Shown here one piece after another: positions 1,025 through 27,957 of a DNA stretch of 64,000 bases (positions are counted from its first letter, which is position 1; the number at the start of each line of letters is the position of its first letter). Position numbers and translations under genes: made by a program. Below the pieces are notes generated by a model that was not told where the DNA came from, searched no databases, and saw only the letters and a list, made by a program, of their open reading frames with translations. The stretch is from Dictyostelium discoideum (Eukaryota), in the NCBI GenBank assembly GCA_000004695.1, contig CM000150.2, positions 2,112,001 to 2,176,000 of the forward strand, given 5' to 3'.

Positions 1025-4020
1025 TTATTTTCTTCCACCTTTACCTTTACCTTTTTTACCTTTACCTTTGTTGTTATTATTATTGTTGTTTGGTTTTTTT
1101 GGTTGGTTAGCGTTGGTGGTAGTTTGTTCAGTGGTAGTATTAGAGGCTTCATCGACTTCTTCACCTTCTTCGGTTTCTTCTTTGTTTTCAGTTTCAGTTG
1201 GTTTAGCTTGTTCAGTGGTTGATTCTTCTACTTTGGTTTCTTCTTGGACTGGTTCTTCAACTTTGGTTTCTTCTTGAACTGGTTCTTCAACTTTAGTTTC
1301 TTCTTGGACTGGTTCTTCAACTTTAGTTTCTTCTTGAACTGGTTCTTCAACTTTAGTTTCTTCTTGGACTGGTTCTTCAACTTTGATTTCTTCTTGAACT
1401 GGTTCTTCAACTTTAGTTTCTTCTTGGACTGGTTCTTCAACTTTAGTTTCTTCGGCAGCTTTTTCAGCGGCGGCTTCAGCTTCTAATCTTTCTTTTTCGG
1501 CTTGTGCAGCGGCGGCAGCTTCAGCTTCTAATCTTTCTTTTTCGGCTTGGGCAGCAGCGGCTTCAGCTTCTAATCTTTCTTTTTCTAAACGTTCAGTTTC
1601 TTCTTTTTCTAATCTTTCTTTTTCGGCTTGGGCAGCGGCGGCAGCTTCAGCTTCTAATCTTTCTTTTTCAGCTTGAGCAGCGGCAGCTTCAGCTTCTAAT
1701 TTTTCTTTTTCAGCTTGAGCGGCAGCGGCGGCTTCAGCTTCTAATCTTTCTTTTTCAGCTTGAGCAGCGGCGGCTTCAGCTTCTAATTTTTCTTTTTCTA
1801 AACGTTCAGCTTCTTCTTTTTCTAATCTTTCTTTTTCGGCTTGAGCAGCAGCTTCAGCTTCAGCTTCTAATTTTTCTTTTTCAGCTTGAGCAGCAGCAGC
1901 AGCTTCAGCTTCTAATCTTTCTTTTTCGGCTTGTGCAGCAGCGGCGGCTTCAGCTTCTAATCTTTCTTTTTCAGCTTGAGCAGCGGCGGCTTCAGCTTCT
2001 AATTTTTCTTTTTCTAAACGTTCAGCTTCTTCTTTTTCAGCTTGAGCAGCAGCGGCGGCTTCAGCTTCTAATCTTTCTTTTTCGGCTTGAGCAGCAGCGG
2101 CGGCTTCAGCTTCTAATCTTTCTTTTTCAGCTTGAGCAGCGGCGGCAGCTTCGGCTTCTAATCTTTCTTTTTCGGCTTGGGCAGCAGCGGCAGCTTCAGC
2201 TTCTAATTTTTCTTTTTCAGCTTGAGCAGCGGCGGCAGCTTCGGCTTCTAATTTCTCTTTTTCTAAACGTTCAGTTTCTTCTTTTTCTAATCTTTCTTTT
2301 TCAGCTTGAGCGGCAGCGGCGGCTTCAGCTTCTAATCTTTCTTTTTCAGCTTGAGTAGCAGCGGCGGCTTCAGCTTCTAATTTTTCTTTTTCTAAACGAT
2401 CAGCTTCTTCTTTTTCTAATCTTTCTTTTTCAGCTTGAACGGCAGCGGCGGCTTCAGCTTCTAATCTTTCTTTTTCAGCTTGGGCGGCAGCGGCGGCTTC
2501 AGCTTCTAATCTTTCTTTTTCAGCTTGAGCAGCAGCGGCGGCTTCAGCTTCTAATCTTTCTTTTTCTAATTTATCTGCTTCTTCTTTTTCTAAACGTTCT
2601 TTTTCAGCTTGAGCGGCTGCTGCTGCTTCTTGTTGTTGTTTTTCTAAATTTTCTTGAGCTTCCTTTTCATCTTTAATTCTCTTTTCTTCAGCTTCTTTGG
2701 CAACTCTTTCAGCCTCTTCCTTTTCTAAACGCTCTTTTTCTAATTTTGCTGCTGCTTCTTCTTTTTCTAAACGTTCTTTTTCTTCTTTTTCTTTTGAATC
2801 ATCAACAACTGGTTCTGGTTTTGATTCTTCAACAACTGGTTTTGATTCTTCGACTACTGGTTTTGATTCTTCGACAACTGGTTTTGATTCTTCAACAACT
2901 GGTTTTGATTCTTCAACAACTGGTGAAGAAGTAGTTGTAGTAGTTGTAGTTGTTGTAGAAGTAGTAGTAGTGTTAATATTTGATGATGGTGATTCATTTT
3001 TAGCATTTTCAATTCTTTCTTTAATCCATTCTAAAATATAAGTAACAAATTCTTCTTTAGCAAATTCATTATGAACTTCATGATACATATTTTCCCAAAG
3101 TTTTAAAGTTTTATCGACAGTTGATGGAACACGATCATAGAATTGTTGTGAAGCTTTTGGACAAGTGATTTTATCATCATTAGCGTGAACCAATAATAAT
3201 GGAGTATCAAATTGTGGTGCTAAATCAATGAGTTGTTCAGAACGTTGTAACATCCATTTAGCCATACCCAATGAGATTTTATTGTGAACCAATTTATCTT
3301 GTTTATATTCGTTTACGACTGCAGAATCTTTAGAGATTAAAGTTGGATCGATTGAATTGCTGATGGTCCATGATGGCATGAGACCACCCAATAAATTACC
3401 CATACTAAGTTTGACACCTGATACTTTGATTGCTGGTTTAATCAATGGTGATGTAACGATACAACCTGCTGGATGGTGATCTTTCTTCTTTAAATTGTAA
3501 TGAAGTGCTAAACAACCACCAAAACTATGACCATAGATAAAATGTGGTACATCGGTTTCAGCTGTTGATGCAATTAATTGAATATCTTTTAATGATTGTT
3601 CGAGTGATGGTGAATGACCTCTAACACCACTTGAAATACCATGACCTCTTTGATCGAATGCATTTACTTTAATACCTTGTTCTGCAAATCTACTAAAAAC
3701 ATGTTCATAACGACCACTATGTTCACCTAAACCATGAATCTAAATAATAAAAAGTTTTTTATTAAAATTAAGTTACACATAAATTTTTTTTTTTTTTTTT
3801 TTTTTTTTTCCCTCTTAATTTTTTTTTTTTTTTTTTTTCCCACGAATCTCAAAAATAAAAAAAAAAAAAAAAAATAATGAAAAAGAAGGGGTGAAGGGGT
3901 TTATTATTGGTTTTAAAAAACTTACCATGGTAACTGTGGCAATTGGTTTAACTTTTGGCTATGAAATATAAAAATAAATTATTAAGAAAATTAATATCCA
4001 TGCATTATTATTTGAATTTG

Positions 4021-18760: not shown

Positions 18761-20559
<1,799 letters not shown>

Positions 20560-21060
20560 CTTCAAAACAAGATTTTAGTAATTCCAGTTTGTATTGTTAT
20601 ATATTTATATTAAATTTTTATCTTTACTTTAATAAATTTATATAAAAATTTTTTTATTTTTTTTATTTTTTTATTTATTTATTTTTTTTTTTATTTTTTA
20701 TTTTATTTTTATTATAAACTATACTAAAATATTGTCTATTTTTGTTGTTAAAAATGATATTTGTTAATAGGATACTATTTGAAGTACTAAATGAGAGAGT
20801 GTGTGTGTGTGTGTGTCTTTTTTTATGTTAAAATAAGTAAAAATAAAATAAAAAAAAACAAAAATAAAAAAAAGTGTGGTAAAAAAAAAAAATAAAAAAA
20901 AAAAAAAAAAAAACAATTCAACTGATTATAAAAGGTGTGTGATACTTTTTTTTTTTTTTTTTTCTCAAAATCTTGGAATTAAATGGTGTGTGTGGTGTGA
21001 TGTGGATTGTTGTGTGGATGTATAGCGAGAGATGATCAAAAAAAAAATAAAAATAAAAAT

Positions 21061-21096
<36 letters not shown>

Positions 21097-21727
21097 AATA
21101 AAAATAAAAACTTACAAAAAATAAAATAAATAAAAAAATAAAAAGGTAACTGATTTGATTTGATTTCTTTTTTTTTTGGTTAATCTTATTTTAATAATAT
21201 TATTATTGTTTTTTATTTTTATTGCCGTTGTGAAAAAAAAGACTTTGAAAAATTTTAAAAAAAAAAAAAAAAAAAAATTTTAAAAAATAAAAATAAAAAA
21301 TAAAAAAAAAAAAAATAAAACAAAAAAAAAGATTTTTATACACATTTTTTAAAATTTTAGATAATATCCTACTTCTTATCTTTTTAAACTCGATCGTATT
21401 TTTTTTTTTTTTTTTTTAAACAATATTTTTTATTATTTTCCTATTATTAATTTAGAATCATTTATTCTTAAAAAAGTAAAAACTATATTTTTTTTTCTTT
21501 TTTAACTATCCATCTTGAGGTATGCGGATATTGAAGTTCTAGGTAATCCAACCCTATTGTTTTTAACAACACTTGTGAAAAAAAAAAAAAAAATTATGAC
21601 CTTCATATAATTTAAGAGTGAGAAGTAGGGTTGTGGATTTGTTAGGGGCGTTTTTTTTATTTTTTTTTTACATACAACCTAATTTTTTATTTTTCACACA
21701 CATATTTTCAAATAAAATATGTAAAAA

Positions 21728-21786
21728 AAAAAAGTCCAAATCCCTTTCAAATAATTTAACTCTCTTTTAATCAACTTTTATTATCA
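21728..21786. repeat. Left arm of an inverted-repeat pair. The partner is at 24244..24298.
   Basis: aaaaagtccaaatccctttcaaataatttaactctcttttaatcaacttttatt is the reverse complement of gat..aataaaagttgattaaaagagagttaaattatttgaaaggggatttggacttttt at 24244..24298. There is one indel and about 55 of 57 identities, with weaker similarity extending about 15 bp further. Confidence 0.8.
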
Positions 21787-21977
21787 AAATAAAAATAAAA
21801 ATAAAAATAAAAATAAAAATAAAGAAATATATAATAGCGGTCAACCCCACCATCATCTTCAACAACAACTTCACCATCATCTTGTTAATTAATTACACAT
21901 ACACTCTATCACACACCCTTATCAACTTAATTTATTTAAATCAAAACCCAACGAACAAACAATCAAACCATTAACAC

Positions 21978-22021
<44 letters not shown>

Positions 22022-22255
22022 AAAAAAAGAAAATTAACCAAAAAAAAAACACTTTATTAAACTTTGTTTTGATGAGTTAAAAATTATTTAGTATTCTGTA
22101 CTATTTACATTTTGATCTATAATAATTACTTTTTTCCCCAATTTAATAATAAAATTAATGGTTATATATGGTTGCATAATATTGTGTGACTCACCTCTAC
22201 CTGTTTTTCCAAGTGTAATTCCTGTTTTTACATGTGTGGTTACAATATCCTTATG

Positions 22256-22666
22256 TTATTGATGATAATCAGAAAAACTTCCATGAGGACCACTACTGAA
22301 ACCACCTCCAATAGAATGCCATGTATGACCTGGGTCAATTACGGGATGATCATGAGATGGCAATTCTGAAACTGTTAAAAGATGATTTGTTAAACCAACT
22401 CCATTTCCTGCACCTATTGGACATTTACCACGAAAATCTGGTTTTGAAAATTCATGTTCACTTGAACCAAATGCATCTCCAATTTGTCGATATAATTCTG
22501 GATATGTTAATTTATTTAATGGAGCTCCATCACAAAGAGACCAACCAACTGGTATTTCAATACCTGTAAAAATATTAACTGATCCAGGTTGGATTGAATT
22601 TTCAATTTTTTTTTCTAAATTTGCAACTGCAAGTTTTTGTTTTGTTTCAATGGCTAATTTTGACAT
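22256..22666 (-). CDS. Phage tail-collar domain (microcystin-dependent protein MdpB-like) protein, 136 aa, intronless.
   Basis: MSKLAIETKQKLAVANLEKKIENSIQPGSVNIFTGIEIPVGWSLCDGAPLNKLTYPELYRQIGDAFGSSEHEFSKPDFRGKCPIGAGNGVGLTNHLLTVSELPSHDHPVIDPGHTWH... This matches the Phage_tail_collar consensus (..IxxFAGxxxPxGWLxCDGxxLxxxxYPxLFxxIGxxYGG...FxLPDLRGRxPxGxGxGxGL...xxMPxHxH). It is a bacterial/phage-type domain sitting inside the inverted-repeat-bounded segment. Confidence 0.7.
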   Translation of the reverse strand: MSKLAIETKQKLAVANLEKKIENSIQPGSVNIFTGIEIPVGWSLCDGAPLNKLTYPELYRQIGDAFGSSEHEFSKPDFRGKCPIGAGNGVGLTNHLLTVSELPSHDHPVIDPGHTWHSIGGGFSSGPHGSFSDYHQ

Positions 22667-22689
22667 TTTCTTTTTTAATCTTTTTTAAA

Positions 22690-22974
22690 TTACTTTGAAC
22701 TTTGTAATAGTTTATATAATAAGCCAGATTTCTTGATATAAATACAACAGTGACAATAAATGGTAAGATAAACATTAAGATATTTGATGCTTCTTCTTGC
22801 TTTGATATCAGCATTTGCTAAAGTTTCTGCACAATTTACCATTGCATTGGATACAGCAGTTGAAGATTTTTCAAGACCTTTAGAAACTTGTTTCAAACCA
22901 TCACCAATTTCAGCTCCACCTTATCAACTCCTAAACCAAGAGCACCCAAACTAAAACCGATGATTTCCATAAAA
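22690..22974 (-). pseudogene. Small ORF encoding a glycine-zipper/amphipathic peptide with an apparent +1 frameshift: MEIIGFSLGALGLGVDK | GGAEIGDGLKQVSKGLEKSSTAVSNAMVNCAETLANADIKARRS... It lies immediately upstream of the tail-collar ORF on the same strand.
   Basis: The ATG at 22974 opens a 25-codon frame that hits a stop. One nucleotide later the next frame (track ORF 22690..22896) continues a sensible peptide. No intron of plausible length separates the two frames. It ends 23 nt before the tail-collar ATG. Confidence 0.3.
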
Positions 22975-24243
22975 AAAATAGAAAAAACTCACAAAATAAA
23001 TATCTAATAATGATTGGGGAGTTTTTTTATAATTATAAATTTTTTTTTTTTTTTTTTTTAATTTCAAGAAAAATAAATAATTATTAGAATTTTTAAAAAT
23101 AAATAACTGGTAGGAAACAGATATTGATAAAATAGAAGAACTATTTATTTTAGAAGCTAATGTGGAAGTTTTGATCGTGTTCTATTAAAATTATTAGAAA
23201 TTATTAACTTAATATTTTAAAAAAAAAAAAATAAAAATAAAAATAATAAAATTAAATTGGTGCCAAAGAAAAAAAAAATAATTAAATAAAAAAAAAATTA
23301 AATTAATAAATAAAAAAATTTTAATTAATTAAATAAAAAAATTAAATAAAAAAATTAAATAAAAAAAAAAATTAATTAAATAAAAAAAAAAAAAAAAAAT
23401 AATAATAATAATAATAATACAAAATTGGTTAATTATTTACAAATATTAATATTGGTTTAATAATTTTAAAAATATATTTGTTTATGGTGTTTATGTTCTT
23501 TTGTTATGTTTAAAGTGATCAAAAAATTATAATTCAAACTTGTATACTATATTCATAACAAGCTGGAAGGATGATGTCTATATCAAGAGGATCAGAAGTC
23601 CATGGGAAGGGTTTGCCGAATTTACTTGATGAATGATTCATTTGAAATTTAAAACATTATGATTAATCGAGACATTTTTATTATATTGAGTTTGATTTTA
23701 TTGTGGAGTTTTCCCCTTTTTTTTTTTTTTTTTTTTTTTAACCCTTGCCCCTTTTTTTTTTGTAAACAAACTAAAATGGCTTTTTAAGAATTTATTTTTT
23801 ATTTTCCCACAAAAAAAATTCATAATGTGGAAATTAATAAAATAATGTTTTAAAAAAAGGGTAAAAATTAATAAGATGTAGGGGACTGTAAAATTAACAT
23901 TACACAATATCAAATTTTTTTTTTTCCCACAAAATCTATTTTTATACCAGTTCCATATACATTTGCTTTTTATTTTTTTTTTTTTTGATTATTTTGATTT
24001 TTTCACATAAAGTGTCATCAACAAATTAAAAATTTAATTTAAAAAAATAAAAAAATAAAAAAAATAAAAAAAAATTTTCAACTGAAAAACCATTTTTTTT
24101 TTTTTTTGAATAAAAAAATAATAAAAACTTATAGTGCTTATATGATCATATGACATTATTAAATAAATAAGTTTTTTATAATTTTATTTTTTTTTTAATT
24201 ATATAATTTTACTAGTAAAATTATTTAATTAATTTTTATTTGA

Positions 24244-24298
24244 TCAATAAAAGTTGATTAAAAGAGAGTTAAATTATTTGAAAGGGGATTTGGACTTT
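24244..24298. repeat. Right arm of the inverted-repeat pair (partner 21728..21786).
   Basis: See the left arm. The two arms bound a 2.5 kb segment that contains the tail-collar ORF. Confidence 0.8.
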
Positions 24299-24448
24299 TT
24301 TTTTTTTTTTTTTTTTTTATAAAAAAAAAATCTTTTATTTGAATACATATTTATATCACAAACAATTTGTTAAAAGTAATAAGAGAAAACTAAATAAAAT
24401 TATTTTCAAAGAAATAATTTTTTTTTTTTTTTTTTTTATTTGGTTGAT

Positions 24449-24500
<52 letters not shown>

Positions 24501-24701
24501 CAAAAATTTTTTCAACCAGATTTTAGAATTTTATACAAATTAAAAAAAATAAAAAAACTATTATCTGATTTGTTTAATTGAATTATTAAATATTTATCTA
24601 ATTTTAGTGAATCTGATAAGCTTGAGAAACTATTTAATTTCAAATATTATTTGAGTAATACTTTAAAAGTTTTTTTAGTTTGGTAAATTTTAATTTAAAA
24701 A

Positions 24702-24743
<42 letters not shown>

Positions 24744-25155
24744 TAATATTTTTTTTTTCAAAAGAATTAATTTGTTTTTTTATTTTAATTAAACCCTAAA
24801 TTATTTATCTGAAAAAAAATTTTCGCTTTCCCAAACAGTTTTATTTTTTTATTTGAAAAAAAAAGAAACAATTTTTTGAAAGCTTCCAACTCAATAGCGT
24901 CAAATCTGATCGGAGTTTCAGTTGAAAAATGGGTTTTTTTTTTTTTACAATTTTTTTTAATTTTTTTTCAATTTTTTTTTTTTTTTTCATAAACAAAATC
25001 TTTTTTATTTTACTTTTTTTTTTTTTTTTTTATTTATTGTATACTAAATTTTAGTTTTATATATATTTTTTTTTTTTTGTATATTTAATTTTTTATTTAT
25101 TTATTTTGTAATATTTTTATTTTTTTGTAAATTAATAACCACACATAAAAACAAA

Positions 25156-27957
25156 ATGTCAGAAGAACCAACCCCAGTTTCAGGTAATGACAAACAACTC
25201 TTGAACAAAGCTTGGGAAATTACCCAAAAAAAAGTAAAATATTATTATTTTTTCTATTCAAAAAAAAAAAAAAAAAAATAAATAAATAAATATAATAAAA
25301 TTTTATTAATTTTTTTTATTATTATTATTATTTTTTAAAAATATTTAGACTTTCACAGCATGGTGTAATTCACATTTACGTAAACTTGGATCATCAATTG
25401 AACAAATTGATACAGATTTTACTGATGGTATTAAATTAGCTCAATTATTAGAAGTTATTTCAAATGATCCAGTATTTAAAGTAAACAAAACACCAAAATT
25501 AAGAATTCATAATATCCAAAATGTTGGTCTCTGTTTAAAACATATTGAATCACATGGTGTTAAATTGGTTGGTATTGGTGCTGAAGAGTTAGTTGATAAA
25601 AACTTAAAGATGACTTTGGGTATGATTTGGACAATCATTCTTCGTTTTGCCATTCAAGATATTTCAATTGAAGAATTGAGTGCCAAAGAAGCCCTTTTAC
25701 TTTGGTGTCAAAGAAAGACCGAAGGTTATGACCGTGTTAAAGTTGGTAATTTCCATACCTCATTCCAAGATGGTCTTGCCTTTTGTGCTCTCATCCATAA
25801 ACATAGACCAGATTTAATCAACTTTGACTCTTTAAACAAAGATGATAAAGCTGGTAACTTACAATTGGCTTTTGATATTGCCGAAAAAGAATTGGATATC
25901 CCAAAGATGTTGGATGTTTCCGATATGCTCGATGTCGTTCGTCCAGATGAAAGATCAGTCATGACCTACGTCGCTCAATACTACCATCACTTTTCTGCCT
26001 CTAGAAAAGCTGAAACCGCCGGTAAACAAGTTGGTAAAGTTTTAGATACCTTTATGTTGTTAGAACAAACCAAATCTGATTATCTTAAAAGAGCCAATGA
26101 ACTCGTTCAATGGATTAACGATAAACAAGCATCACTTGAATCACGTGATTTTGGTGATTCCATCGAATCTGTTCAAAGTTTCATGAACGCTCATAAAGAA
26201 TATAAAAAAACCGAAAAACCACCAAAGGGTCAAGAAGTCTCTGAATTGGAAGCTATCTACAATTCATTACAAACTAAATTACGTTTAATTAAACGTGAAC
26301 CATTTGTTGCACCAGCTGGTCTCACTCCAAATGAAATCGATTCCACTTGGTCCGCTTTAGAGAAAGCTGAACAAGAACATGCTGAAGCCCTCCGTATTGA
26401 ACTCAAACGTCAAAAGAAAATTGCAGTTCTCTTACAAAAATACAATCGTATTCTCAAGAAACTCGAAAACTGGGCCACCACCAAATCTGTCTACCTCGGT
26501 TCCAATGAAACCGGTGACAGTATCACTGCTGTTCAAGCTAAATTAAAGAATTTAGAAGCTTTTGATGGTGAATGTCAATCATTGGAAGGTCAATCAAACT
26601 CTGATCTCCTCAGCATTCTTGCTCAATTAACTGAACTCAACTACAATGGTGTACCAGAACTCACTGAACGTAAAGATACATTCTTTGCTCAACAATGGAC
26701 TGGTGTTAAATCATCTGCTGAAACCTACAAAAACACTCTTTTAGCTGAACTTGAAAGACTCCAAAAGATTGAAGACTCATTGGTCGAATTCGCCAAGAGA
26801 GCCGCTCAATTAAATGTTTGGATTGAAGCTGCCGATGATCATGTATTTGATCCAATCAATGTTGACTCTGTTCAAGGTGTCCAAGAAATTCAAGAGAAAT
26901 TCGACGCTTTCCTCCACGATCAATCACAACAATTCGCTGAATTGGAAGCCCTCGCTGCTTTAACTCAACAACTCCGTGAACTCGGTCGTTCTGAAAACGA
27001 TTATTCAGTCATTTCATACGATGAACTCTCTGCCAAATGGAATAATTTATTGGCTGGTATTGAAGAACGTAAAGTTCAACTCGCCAATGAACTCACCACT
27101 CAAACCAACAACGATGTTCTTTGCCAATCATTCTCTGTTAAAGCAAATGAAATTTCAGATTATGTCCGTGTTACTTTAGATGCCATCTCACAAAACACTT
27201 CATCAGATCCACAAGAACAATTAAACAATATCCGTGCTATCATCACCGCTCATGCTGAAAAGAAACCAGAACTCGATGAATTATACACCATTGCTTCTCA
27301 ACTCGAAGAAGCTCAAGTTGTCGATAACAAACATACTCAACACAGTTTAGAATCAATTAAATTAAAATGGGATAAACTCAATACACTCGCTAAAAAGAAT
27401 GAACAAGTTGTTGAAGGTGAAATTCTTGCTAAACAATTAACTGGTGTTACTGCTGAAGAATTAAGTGAATTTAAAGGTATGTATAATTTATTTATTATAA
27501 ATATTAATTAAATTATTTAAAACTCGTCCAATGATTAATAAATAACTTTTTTTAATTAATTAACATGAACGAAAAAGCCTGCTTCTCACATTTCGATAAG
27601 GACAACGATAACAAATTAAATCGTCTTGAATTCTCCTCTTGCTTGAAGAGTATCGGAGATGAATTAACTGAAGAACAATTAAATCAAGTCATCAGTAAAA
27701 TCGATACCGATGGTAATGGTACCATTTCATTCGAAGAATTTATTGATTACATGGTTTCATCACGTAAAGGTACAGACAGCGTTGAATCAACTAAAGCTGC
27801 ATTCAAAGTTATGGCTGAGGATAAAGATTTCATTACTGAAGCTCAAATTCGTGCTGCTATCTCTGATTCTAAACAAATTGATTATTTACTCGCCAGTATG
27901 CCAGCTGTTGAAGGTGGTTTTGACTACAATTCATTTGCTGAAAAATTATACCAATAA
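25156..27957 (+). CDS. abpA: Alpha-actinin (F-actin cross-linking protein). Three exons: join(25156..25233, 25349..27476, 27578..27957), 861 aa.
   Basis: Exon 1 (MSEEPTPVSGNDKQLLNKAWEITQKK) is followed by exon 2 starting TFTAWCNSHLRK, with two calponin-homology domains (..DGIKLAQLLEVIS.., ..LLLWCQRKTEGY..DGLAFCALIHKHRPDLI..) and four spectrin-like repeats. The ..EFKG donor is GTATGT. Exon 3 begins (A)CFSHFDKDNDNKLNRLEF and carries two EF-hands (DKDNDNKLNRLEF, DTDGNGTISFEEF). This matches Dictyostelium alpha-actinin as I recall it. Confidence 0.9.

Follow-up and report, generated by a model that had tools for sequence, protein, structure and literature searches.

A phage-type tail-collar open reading frame in a Dictyostelium discoideum chromosome is probably the front part of a decaying, lineage-restricted horizontal acquisition

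A Collar-domain open reading frame in Dictyostelium discoideum AX4

We analyzed a stretch of 64,000 nucleotides of the D. discoideum AX4 genome (contig CM000150.2, positions 2,112,001 to 2,176,000; referred to below as the window, with positions counted from its first letter), in which an original prediction had flagged an open reading frame (ORF) for a protein with a phage tail-collar domain. The ORF (22256-22666, 136 codons) exists and is without intron, and a profile search confirmed its match to Pfam PF07484 ('Collar', Phage Tail Collar; E=3.2e-15, 56.3 bits, cut-off 24), which spans profile positions 1-57 of 57. The Pfam gathering threshold is also passed by a copy in D. cf. discoideum (54.9 bits). 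In addition, 17 PHROG tail or tail-fiber families match the ORF, and a search of the Protein Data Bank (PDB) retrieved the T4 short tail fiber gp12 (E=2.6e-4). A search of NCBIfam with the ORF matched no model. The assignment of the collar domain is sound, and far above chance.

The family profile matches solved tail-fiber tips over the whole length, including the last strand (8kec, E=4e-15; 9nxk; 9qgo; T4 gp12). Downstream of the collar, the ORF contains an HxH motif (SHDH), both His columns of which are 90% conserved among 60 homologues and invariant in alignment A3. By homology, H-D-H would correspond to the HxH metal-binding motif of tail-fiber tips, with a putative role in metal binding. 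The tail-collar match had been described as running along the full length of the protein; the ORF holds only the front three quarters of the family architecture, and the C-terminal block lies after its TAA stop codon. The GC content of the ORF (0.31) is indeed above that of the flanks (0.12-0.20), as had been noted, but the same holds for every coding stretch of the window. The AT-rich codon usage was correctly predicted, with a host-like G+C content at third codon positions (GC3) of 9%.

Lesions in the AX4 copy

We conclude that the AX4 ORF is very probably the front part of a dead, unannotated pseudogene, left by a lineage-restricted horizontal acquisition that is decaying. The coordinates of the lesions and of the other features of the locus are listed in Table 1. 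The 55 codons that follow the premature stop contain GRGESHNIMQPYITINFIIK and align to the C-terminal block that is invariant in the family, G.G..HNN.QP....IIK (AX4: GxGxSHNIMQPYITINFIIK). This block is outside the polypeptide encoded by the AX4 ORF; in D. cf. discoideum the frame runs through it. The C-terminus of gp37 folds back and completes the collar domain (PMC12724248), so that a product stopping at codon 136 would, by analogy, miss part of its own collar domain.

The two in-frame deletions in AX4 together removed 13 codons that are kept in D. cf. discoideum (11 for RVIGSKGGEEN and 2 for HS). The ancestral start of the collar gene is the ATG at 22773-22775, located 36 codons upstream of the ORF, which overlaps the stop codon of an upstream orphan ORF (ORF1) as TAATG and is also present in AX4. 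After this ATG, the gene encodes a hydrophobic segment, MFILPFIVTVVFI, and then a basic, coiled linker. Among 60 homologues, 31 columns reach a conservation of 80% or more; AX4 retains 24 of them when the part beyond the stop is counted, and D. cf. discoideum retains 26.

We rejected the possibility that the TAA is removed by splicing, because the only GT..AG pairs nearby span 22-29 nt, which is too short for Dictyostelium introns, and because Logan contigs are colinear with the locus. The exact 136-residue product was not found among ~15 billion proteins, a collection that includes AX4 proteins, and the ORF is therefore without a protein record there.

Table 1. Coordinates of the collar locus, its lesions and the inserted block in the window
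Feature	Position	Strand	Basis or remark
Flagged ORF, 136 codons from ATG to TAA	22256..22666	minus	ORF list; very probably the 5' part of the collar gene (ancestral ORF2), now decayed
Pfam Collar domain proper, ORF residues 28-83	22418..22585	minus	PF07484 match; aligns to T4 gp12 residues ~334-412
H-D-H of LPSHDH motif	22346..22354	minus	Alignment of homologues; aligned to PSHQH of PDB 8kec
Premature in-frame TAA	22256..22258	minus	CAT (His) at the same codon in D. cf. discoideum
55 codons continuing the ORF frame past the TAA	22091..22255	minus	Second stop at 22088-22090
C-terminal block GESHNIMQPYITINFIIK, severed from the ORF	22142..22195	minus	Columns H, N, Q, P, I 83-95% conserved in the family
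Junction of 33-nt in-frame deletion	22388..22389	minus	RVIGSKGGEEN lost, including GG that is 80-98% conserved; alignment A2
6-nt in-frame deletion in AX4, DPGHSHSW to DPGHTW	22327..22332	minus	Three-way alignment
Former 5' end of the collar gene	22667..22775	minus	Out of frame with the ORF through a 1-nt insertion in an A-run
Remnant of upstream orphan ORF1	22775..22970	minus	AX4: 1-nt deletion and deletion of ~367 nt
Inserted block, approximate	21634..24049		Relative to the empty site in GCA_054859385.1; relative to D. citrinum ~21484-24041
Inverted repeat, left arm	21705..21808		Duplicated host flank, single-copy in empty-site strains; 88.7% over 97 nt
Inverted repeat, right arm	24220..24323		Original host flank upstream of alpha-actinin

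A second haplotype and the copy in D. cf. discoideum

Six public sequencing runs yielded a 1-kb contig of a second D. discoideum haplotype, colinear with window 22005-23057. It has the same TAA as AX4, from which it differs by 2 substitutions and an extra 5-bp deletion (CAGGT, 22328-22332) that shifts the frame at codon 114. This haplotype was seen in Logan contigs that end in homopolymers and do not tell RNA from DNA as their source. In one contig of the 5-bp-deletion haplotype (L006, Logan SRR24091729), positions 1-45, upstream of the ORF1 remnant, have a differing sequence (GTGGTGTTGTTGGTGCTG...), and an extra gene of 41 aa is called. This divergence points to structural variation, or to chimerism of the contig, at window position ~22996.

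With the neighboring 856-aa gene as an anchor, we retrieved the corresponding syntenic region from D. cf. discoideum (GCA_054859235.1). It contains an annotated 354-aa gene matching PF07484 just beyond alpha-actinin. The collar ORF2 of this species encodes ~241 aa, a length like that of viral homologues; a hydrophobic N-terminus is followed by a coiled-coil linker and then the collar module. Its start overlaps the stop of a 187-aa ORF1, again as TAATG. When repaired, the D. cf. discoideum protein also passes the cut-off for Gp10_C (PF21939; 28.4 bits, cut-off 27). The public 354-aa model (P0177, ACTFIZ_004665; L120 10001-11290) fuses ORF1 and the collar gene through three predicted introns. 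One of these introns takes out the invariant SHNIMQPY..IIK block, and we rejected the model as a probable artefact of joining stretches in different frames.

The larger insertion of D. cf. discoideum also contains, in a part that is not in AX4, an orphan ORF of 327 aa on the minus strand (L120 12589-13572). Its GC content of 37-40% is clearly above the local background, and the predicted protein has an N-terminal globular part, NLQNQV heptad-like repeats, a Gly-rich stretch and a Cys/Pro-rich tail. Searches of Pfam, PHROGs, PDB, phage genomes and viral contigs with ORF1 and the 327-aa ORF found no relatives, only coiled-coil noise.

Selection on the collar gene

In the comparison of AX4 with D. 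cf. discoideum, dS of the collar gene is 0.092 and dN is 0.083, corresponding to an omega (dN/dS) of 0.90 (bootstrap confidence interval 0.48-1.97). For the same pair, omega is 0.06 for alpha-actinin (dS 0.118), 0.12 for the ATPase (dS 0.130) and 0.47 for the 856-aa orphan (dS 0.095). Purifying selection, that is, an omega well below 1, was not detected on the collar gene in this pair, and the gene has evolved close to neutrality.

Extent, distribution and age of the inserted block

The collar gene is part of an inserted block that sits between a phosphodiesterase-like gene and alpha-actinin, and measures ~2.4 kb in AX4 and ~5.6 kb in D. cf. discoideum. The block comprises ORF1 and the collar ORF2, with the 327-aa orphan in D. 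cf. discoideum only. In D. citrinum and D. firmibasis both flanks were found, with no collar gene or ORF1 between them; D. citrinum has ~124 nt in place of window ~21484-24041. The site is also empty in GCA_054859385.1, a strain of the D. discoideum complex in which window 20158-21633 and 24050-26000 map 482 nt apart. The contig of GCA_054859355.1 (L033) ends ~200 nt short of the site. The identity matrix of the ATPase gives the order (((D. discoideum, D. cf. discoideum), D. citrinum), D. firmibasis).

The insertion in D. cf. discoideum is flanked by a direct duplication of ~560 bp of host flank, with 77.5% identity over 595 nt; only ~100 nt of the second flank copy are left in AX4. Because 77.5% is intermediate between the intergenic identities of AX4 and D. 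cf. discoideum (81-85%) and of AX4 and D. citrinum (73-76%), we date the duplication near the stem of D. discoideum and D. cf. discoideum. The distribution fits a single gain on this stem, and the clean absence from one strain would probably be a loss via recombination between the flanking direct repeats. The original prediction had favored an old acquisition that had ameliorated. With the block absent from D. citrinum, D. firmibasis and GCA_054859385.1, and the duplication dating to the stem, the acquisition is instead young, lineage-restricted and polymorphic.

Scans of 18-27 kb with Rfam and for tRNAs found nothing, and there is thus no signature of a tRNA-targeted retroelement. Two CCCACAA motifs are located inside the block on the plus strand (23806-23812 and 23926-23932), at positions without an Rfam family. 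They resemble the Dictyostelium upstream sequence element (DUSE), which lies ~60 nt upstream of small non-coding RNA genes. In two wild assemblies of the D. discoideum complex (L033 15753-18146 and L121 14015-16523), a further gene is annotated between the 856-aa gene and alpha-actinin (736 aa and 513 aa, respectively; no Pfam match). It is not in AX4 or D. cf. discoideum and is another presence/absence difference in the neighborhood of the collar gene.

Foreign origin and candidate donors

No eukaryotic homologue outside the D. discoideum complex was found among the ~15 billion proteins, and the relatives of the gene are phage tail and giant-virus proteins. The foreign origin that had been predicted is well supported; candidate donors are an AT-rich phage or bacterium and, alternatively, a giant virus or an element related to one, and a symbiont-derived insertion is possible. 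We searched for the donor in 5.8 billion clustered proteins, 1.84 billion representatives (with HMMER), phage genomes, IMG/VR, GTDB genomes and metagenomes. The collar family has 24,030 members at E<=1e-3 among the 1.84 billion representatives, and in none of these collections was there a relative outside the species complex above ~46% identity; the named top matches are metagenomic 'microcystin-dependent proteins'. A literature search, which did not extend to the Dictyostelium genome paper, found no description of the locus.

The best single match, P0002 (42.9% identity, 138 bits), is encoded on a tailed-phage contig, in a triplet of collar genes that adjoins a tail tube gene and an M15 endolysin gene. 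P0178 (127 bits) ties with P0002 at 42.9% identity, and is encoded on a gene-dense contig of 30% GC. Full-length relatives of P0178 (43-56% identity, 230-255 aa) are found on contigs of giant-virus metagenome-assembled genomes (GVMAGs). On one of these contigs (L040, 8134-10687), the collar gene adjoins Rpb2 and directly follows the gene for a minor capsid protein P2 (DUF5899) of the type of Paramecium bursaria chlorella virus, which suggests that the giant-virus collar protein is a capsid-attached fiber. P0183, from a 120-kb contig resembling those of nucleocytoplasmic large DNA viruses (NCLDVs), combines a transmembrane (TM) anchor, a coil and the collar, and has an identical SHNIMQPY motif. 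Virophages carry the collar domain as well, in 'tripartite tail proteins' (DSLV2; OLV18/19) and as triplets of ~200-aa collar proteins (PMC12724248; PMC3671162). The description of the domain as essentially bacterial and phage is incomplete, since giant viruses and virophages have it too.

In a neighbor-joining (NJ) tree (62 sequences, 165 columns, 300 bootstraps), the two amoeba copies pair at 100%, and no sister group reaches 25%. The search for nearest neighbors ended in a tie between a phage gene and a giant-virus clade, which the tree does not break with a supported sister. Hidden Markov models (HMMs) of single clades gave the highest scores for the phage-like group (148-155 bits), followed by the giant-virus clade (136 bits) and actinophage tail proteins (132 bits). 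GC3 is 9-12% in the amoeba copies; the giant-virus genes closest to them have 23-29% and the closest phage gene has 56%, which argues that the donor was already AT-rich. The TAATG overlap points to a donor with a compact prokaryotic or viral genome. Viral hallmark genes (major capsid protein, packaging ATPase, DNA polymerase B, integrase and others) were not found in the block of AX4 or D. cf. discoideum.

The giant-virus contigs L038-L049 have a conserved clade of 230-255-aa collar proteins in common. P0017 (4832 aa) and other top HMMER matches are metagenomic giant proteins with up to 11 tandem collar modules, and many proteins of ~450-550 aa hold exactly three modules, which may make them single-chain pseudo-trimers.

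Alternative explanations

The collar gene could have been taken for an intact, functional horizontal acquisition, the 136-aa protein of which works in the amoeba, for example in binding bacteria. The clean ORF from ATG to stop, the good AAAATG start context, the strong Pfam match and the retention of most invariant residues (24 of the 31 conserved columns, if the part after the stop is included) agree with such a function. We nevertheless consider it improbable, because the invariant C-terminal block lies beyond the in-frame stop, 13 codons are lost relative to the sister copy, the start is uncoupled, the second haplotype is frameshifted, the locus is missing from the close strain GCA_054859385.1, omega is ~0.9 and there is no protein record. 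It is even less credible that the gene is an ancient, vertically inherited dictyostelid gene that was repeatedly lost: its codon composition is fully host-like and the flanking direct repeats would permit clean secondary losses, but no homologue was found in other eukaryotes or other dictyostelid proteomes in the collections searched, the sites are empty in both outgroup species, the divergence of the flank copies places the duplication near the stem, and near-neutral evolution would have erased an old gene without constraint. Assembly contamination or a chimeric contig, which had been named as an alternative to transfer, has nothing in its favor except the phage-like domain itself, and its probability is negligible. 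The neighboring ORFs are of Dictyostelium type (FNIP repeats, ComC, a GATA factor, an alpha-actinin-like protein with CH and spectrin domains, and a P-type ATPase), with an ATPase exon 100% identical to D. discoideum AX4 XP_646983.1 (4.92-Mb contig); the locus with the same junctions was assembled independently from six public runs in Logan; a separate species has a syntenic copy in its own assembly; and GC3 is host-like.

Concerning the donor, an AT-rich bacterium or its (pro)phage, such as prey bacteria or an intracellular symbiont could provide, is quite plausible. It agrees with the best single match on a tailed-phage contig, the highest clade HMM score (that of the P0002 group), matches in 844 phage records and the stop/start overlap, which is typical of prokaryotic and phage operons. 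Against it stand the GC3 of P0002, the lineage of which is therefore not a recent donor, the lack of bootstrap support of at least 25%, the lack of phage relatives of ORF1 and the 327-aa ORF, and the lack of a close bacterial match (one GTDB genome matched, at 32% identity). It is also possible, and we hold it with less confidence, that the block is an endogenous viral relic, a fragment left when a giant virus (Nucleocytoviricota), virophage or polinton-like element infected a D. discoideum ancestor. Here the tie of P0178 on identity, its full-length relatives on GVMAG contigs, in L040 beside Rpb2 and minor capsid P2 genes, the shared TM anchor-coil-collar layout and SHNIMQPY of P0183, and the ~200-aa collar triplets of virophages are in favor, and the size of 241 aa and the AT-richness fit better than with the phage match. 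The absence of any NCLDV or virophage hallmark gene from the block of either species, the NJ tree without a supported sister group and a clade-HMM score slightly below that of the phage group speak against it, and we know of no virus of Dictyostelium. More speculatively, and with some doubt, the block may be what is left of a DNA virus that infected social amoebae, whether a giant virus or an element of the virophage/polinton type, and that carried a membrane-anchored collar fiber protein. In this reading, ORF1, the 241-aa collar gene and the 327-aa coiled-coil ORF could still be active in D. cf. discoideum, where the block is better preserved.

Several points weigh against our reading of the locus as a young, decaying acquisition. 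A truncated 136-aa product is formally conceivable in AX4. The collar frame of D. cf. discoideum is open but for one A10-versus-A9 homopolymer difference, which may be an assembly error, so that the gene may still be functional in that species, and the lower bound of omega (0.48) allows some purifying selection on its branch. A young insertion with a fully host-like GC3 of 9-12% needs an unusually AT-rich donor. In AX4, the left repeat remnant has the opposite orientation to the copy in D. cf. discoideum, an arrangement that our reading does not account for. Finally, secondary loss via the direct repeats could explain each of the three absences, and the insertion would then be older than we propose.

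A possible history of the locus

We hypothesize that the ancestral protein, of ~241 aa, began with a short hydrophobic anchor, which a coiled-coil linker joined to the distal tip module of a tail fiber. This module would have comprised the collar domain, a head with the HxH motif and a C-terminal strand running back to the collar. Such modules form trimers in phages and bind receptors on the cell surface, and the ancestral protein may have done the same. A foreign block of a few kb, from an AT-rich phage or bacterium, or from a giant virus or related element, would have entered the nuclear genome of the common ancestor of D. discoideum and D. cf. discoideum, and its insertion between the phosphodiesterase-like gene and alpha-actinin would have duplicated host flank sequence.

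The block would have retained the compact layout of the donor, with the stop of ORF1 overlapping the start of ORF2. Such a layout is presumably ill-suited to eukaryotic translation of the second ORF, which could have led to near-neutral evolution; failed translation may thus have been the cause of decay. In AX4, the decay would have comprised the premature stop, the two in-frame deletions, the uncoupling of the start and the gutting of ORF1, with a further frameshift in another haplotype. In one lineage the whole block would have been lost, probably by recombination of the flanking direct repeats.

Relation to known systems and significance

The amoeba gene shows profile homology over its whole length to the distal tips of phage fibers (T4 gp12 and gp37; PDB 8kec 'long tail fiber', 9nxk, 9qgo; PF07484 plus PF21939 Gp10_C), with which it shares the collar, the His motifs PSHxH and DPGHxH and the C-terminal QPY..IIK strand. 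It differs in being a stand-alone module of ~241 aa with a hydrophobic N-terminus in place of a long shaft, and in residing in a eukaryotic chromosome, where the AX4 version is interrupted and internally deleted. In size class and end-to-end architecture the gene is like the stand-alone 'microcystin-dependent proteins' (MdpB-like) and minor tail proteins of bacteria and phages (170-255 aa), matches to which cover residues ~4-176 at 28-43% identity; unlike these, it has no neighboring tail genes, has a eukaryotic host and is very probably pseudogenised. The collar proteins of giant viruses (230-255 aa) resemble it in length, AT-richness, identity (43%, P0178) and, in P0183, the layout of TM anchor and collar. 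In contrast to the collar genes of giant viruses and virophages, which lie beside capsid genes in viral genomes, the amoeba copy has no viral hallmark nearby and no supported sister relation.

The horizontal transfers from bacteria to Dictyostelium that Eichinger et al. reportedly listed with the AX4 genome in 2005 are said to be intact, annotated and generally conserved genes. As in those cases, a prokaryote- or virus-type gene without introns and with host-like codon usage is found in an amoeba chromosome; unlike them, the collar gene is unannotated, lineage-restricted, polymorphic and decaying. The locus is a new example of a known phenomenon, the failed or decaying horizontal acquisition in a eukaryote. 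Horizontal transfer into eukaryotes is mostly documented from survivors, that is, domesticated genes, and here a well-studied amoeba shows the opposite outcome: a compact two-gene cassette of prokaryotic or viral type beside alpha-actinin that was never under detectable constraint. Close relatives show graded states (nearly intact, decayed, further decayed and absent), which makes the locus a dated example of failed transfer and provides a small set of strains for studying the fate of foreign DNA. A strong Pfam match in a clean ORF proved no gene in this case, which corrects a tempting over-reading. If the donor were a eukaryotic virus, the block would be a first lead to dictyostelid viruses and the first trace of a Dictyostelium virus in a genome. 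Proof of a viral donor, or of an active copy in D. cf. discoideum, would add to the significance of the locus.

Compositional anomaly elsewhere in the window

An anomaly at 1-3 kb of the window (GC 0.40, AT-skew -0.5) stems from a serine-hydrolase (Hydrolase_4) gene at 1025-3445 on the minus strand. The long C-terminal tail of this gene contains ~25 copies of a 45-nt repeat of the AEKERLEAEAAAAAQ type, together with VEESKP and VEEPVQEETK repeats, and is ordinary repetitive coding sequence.

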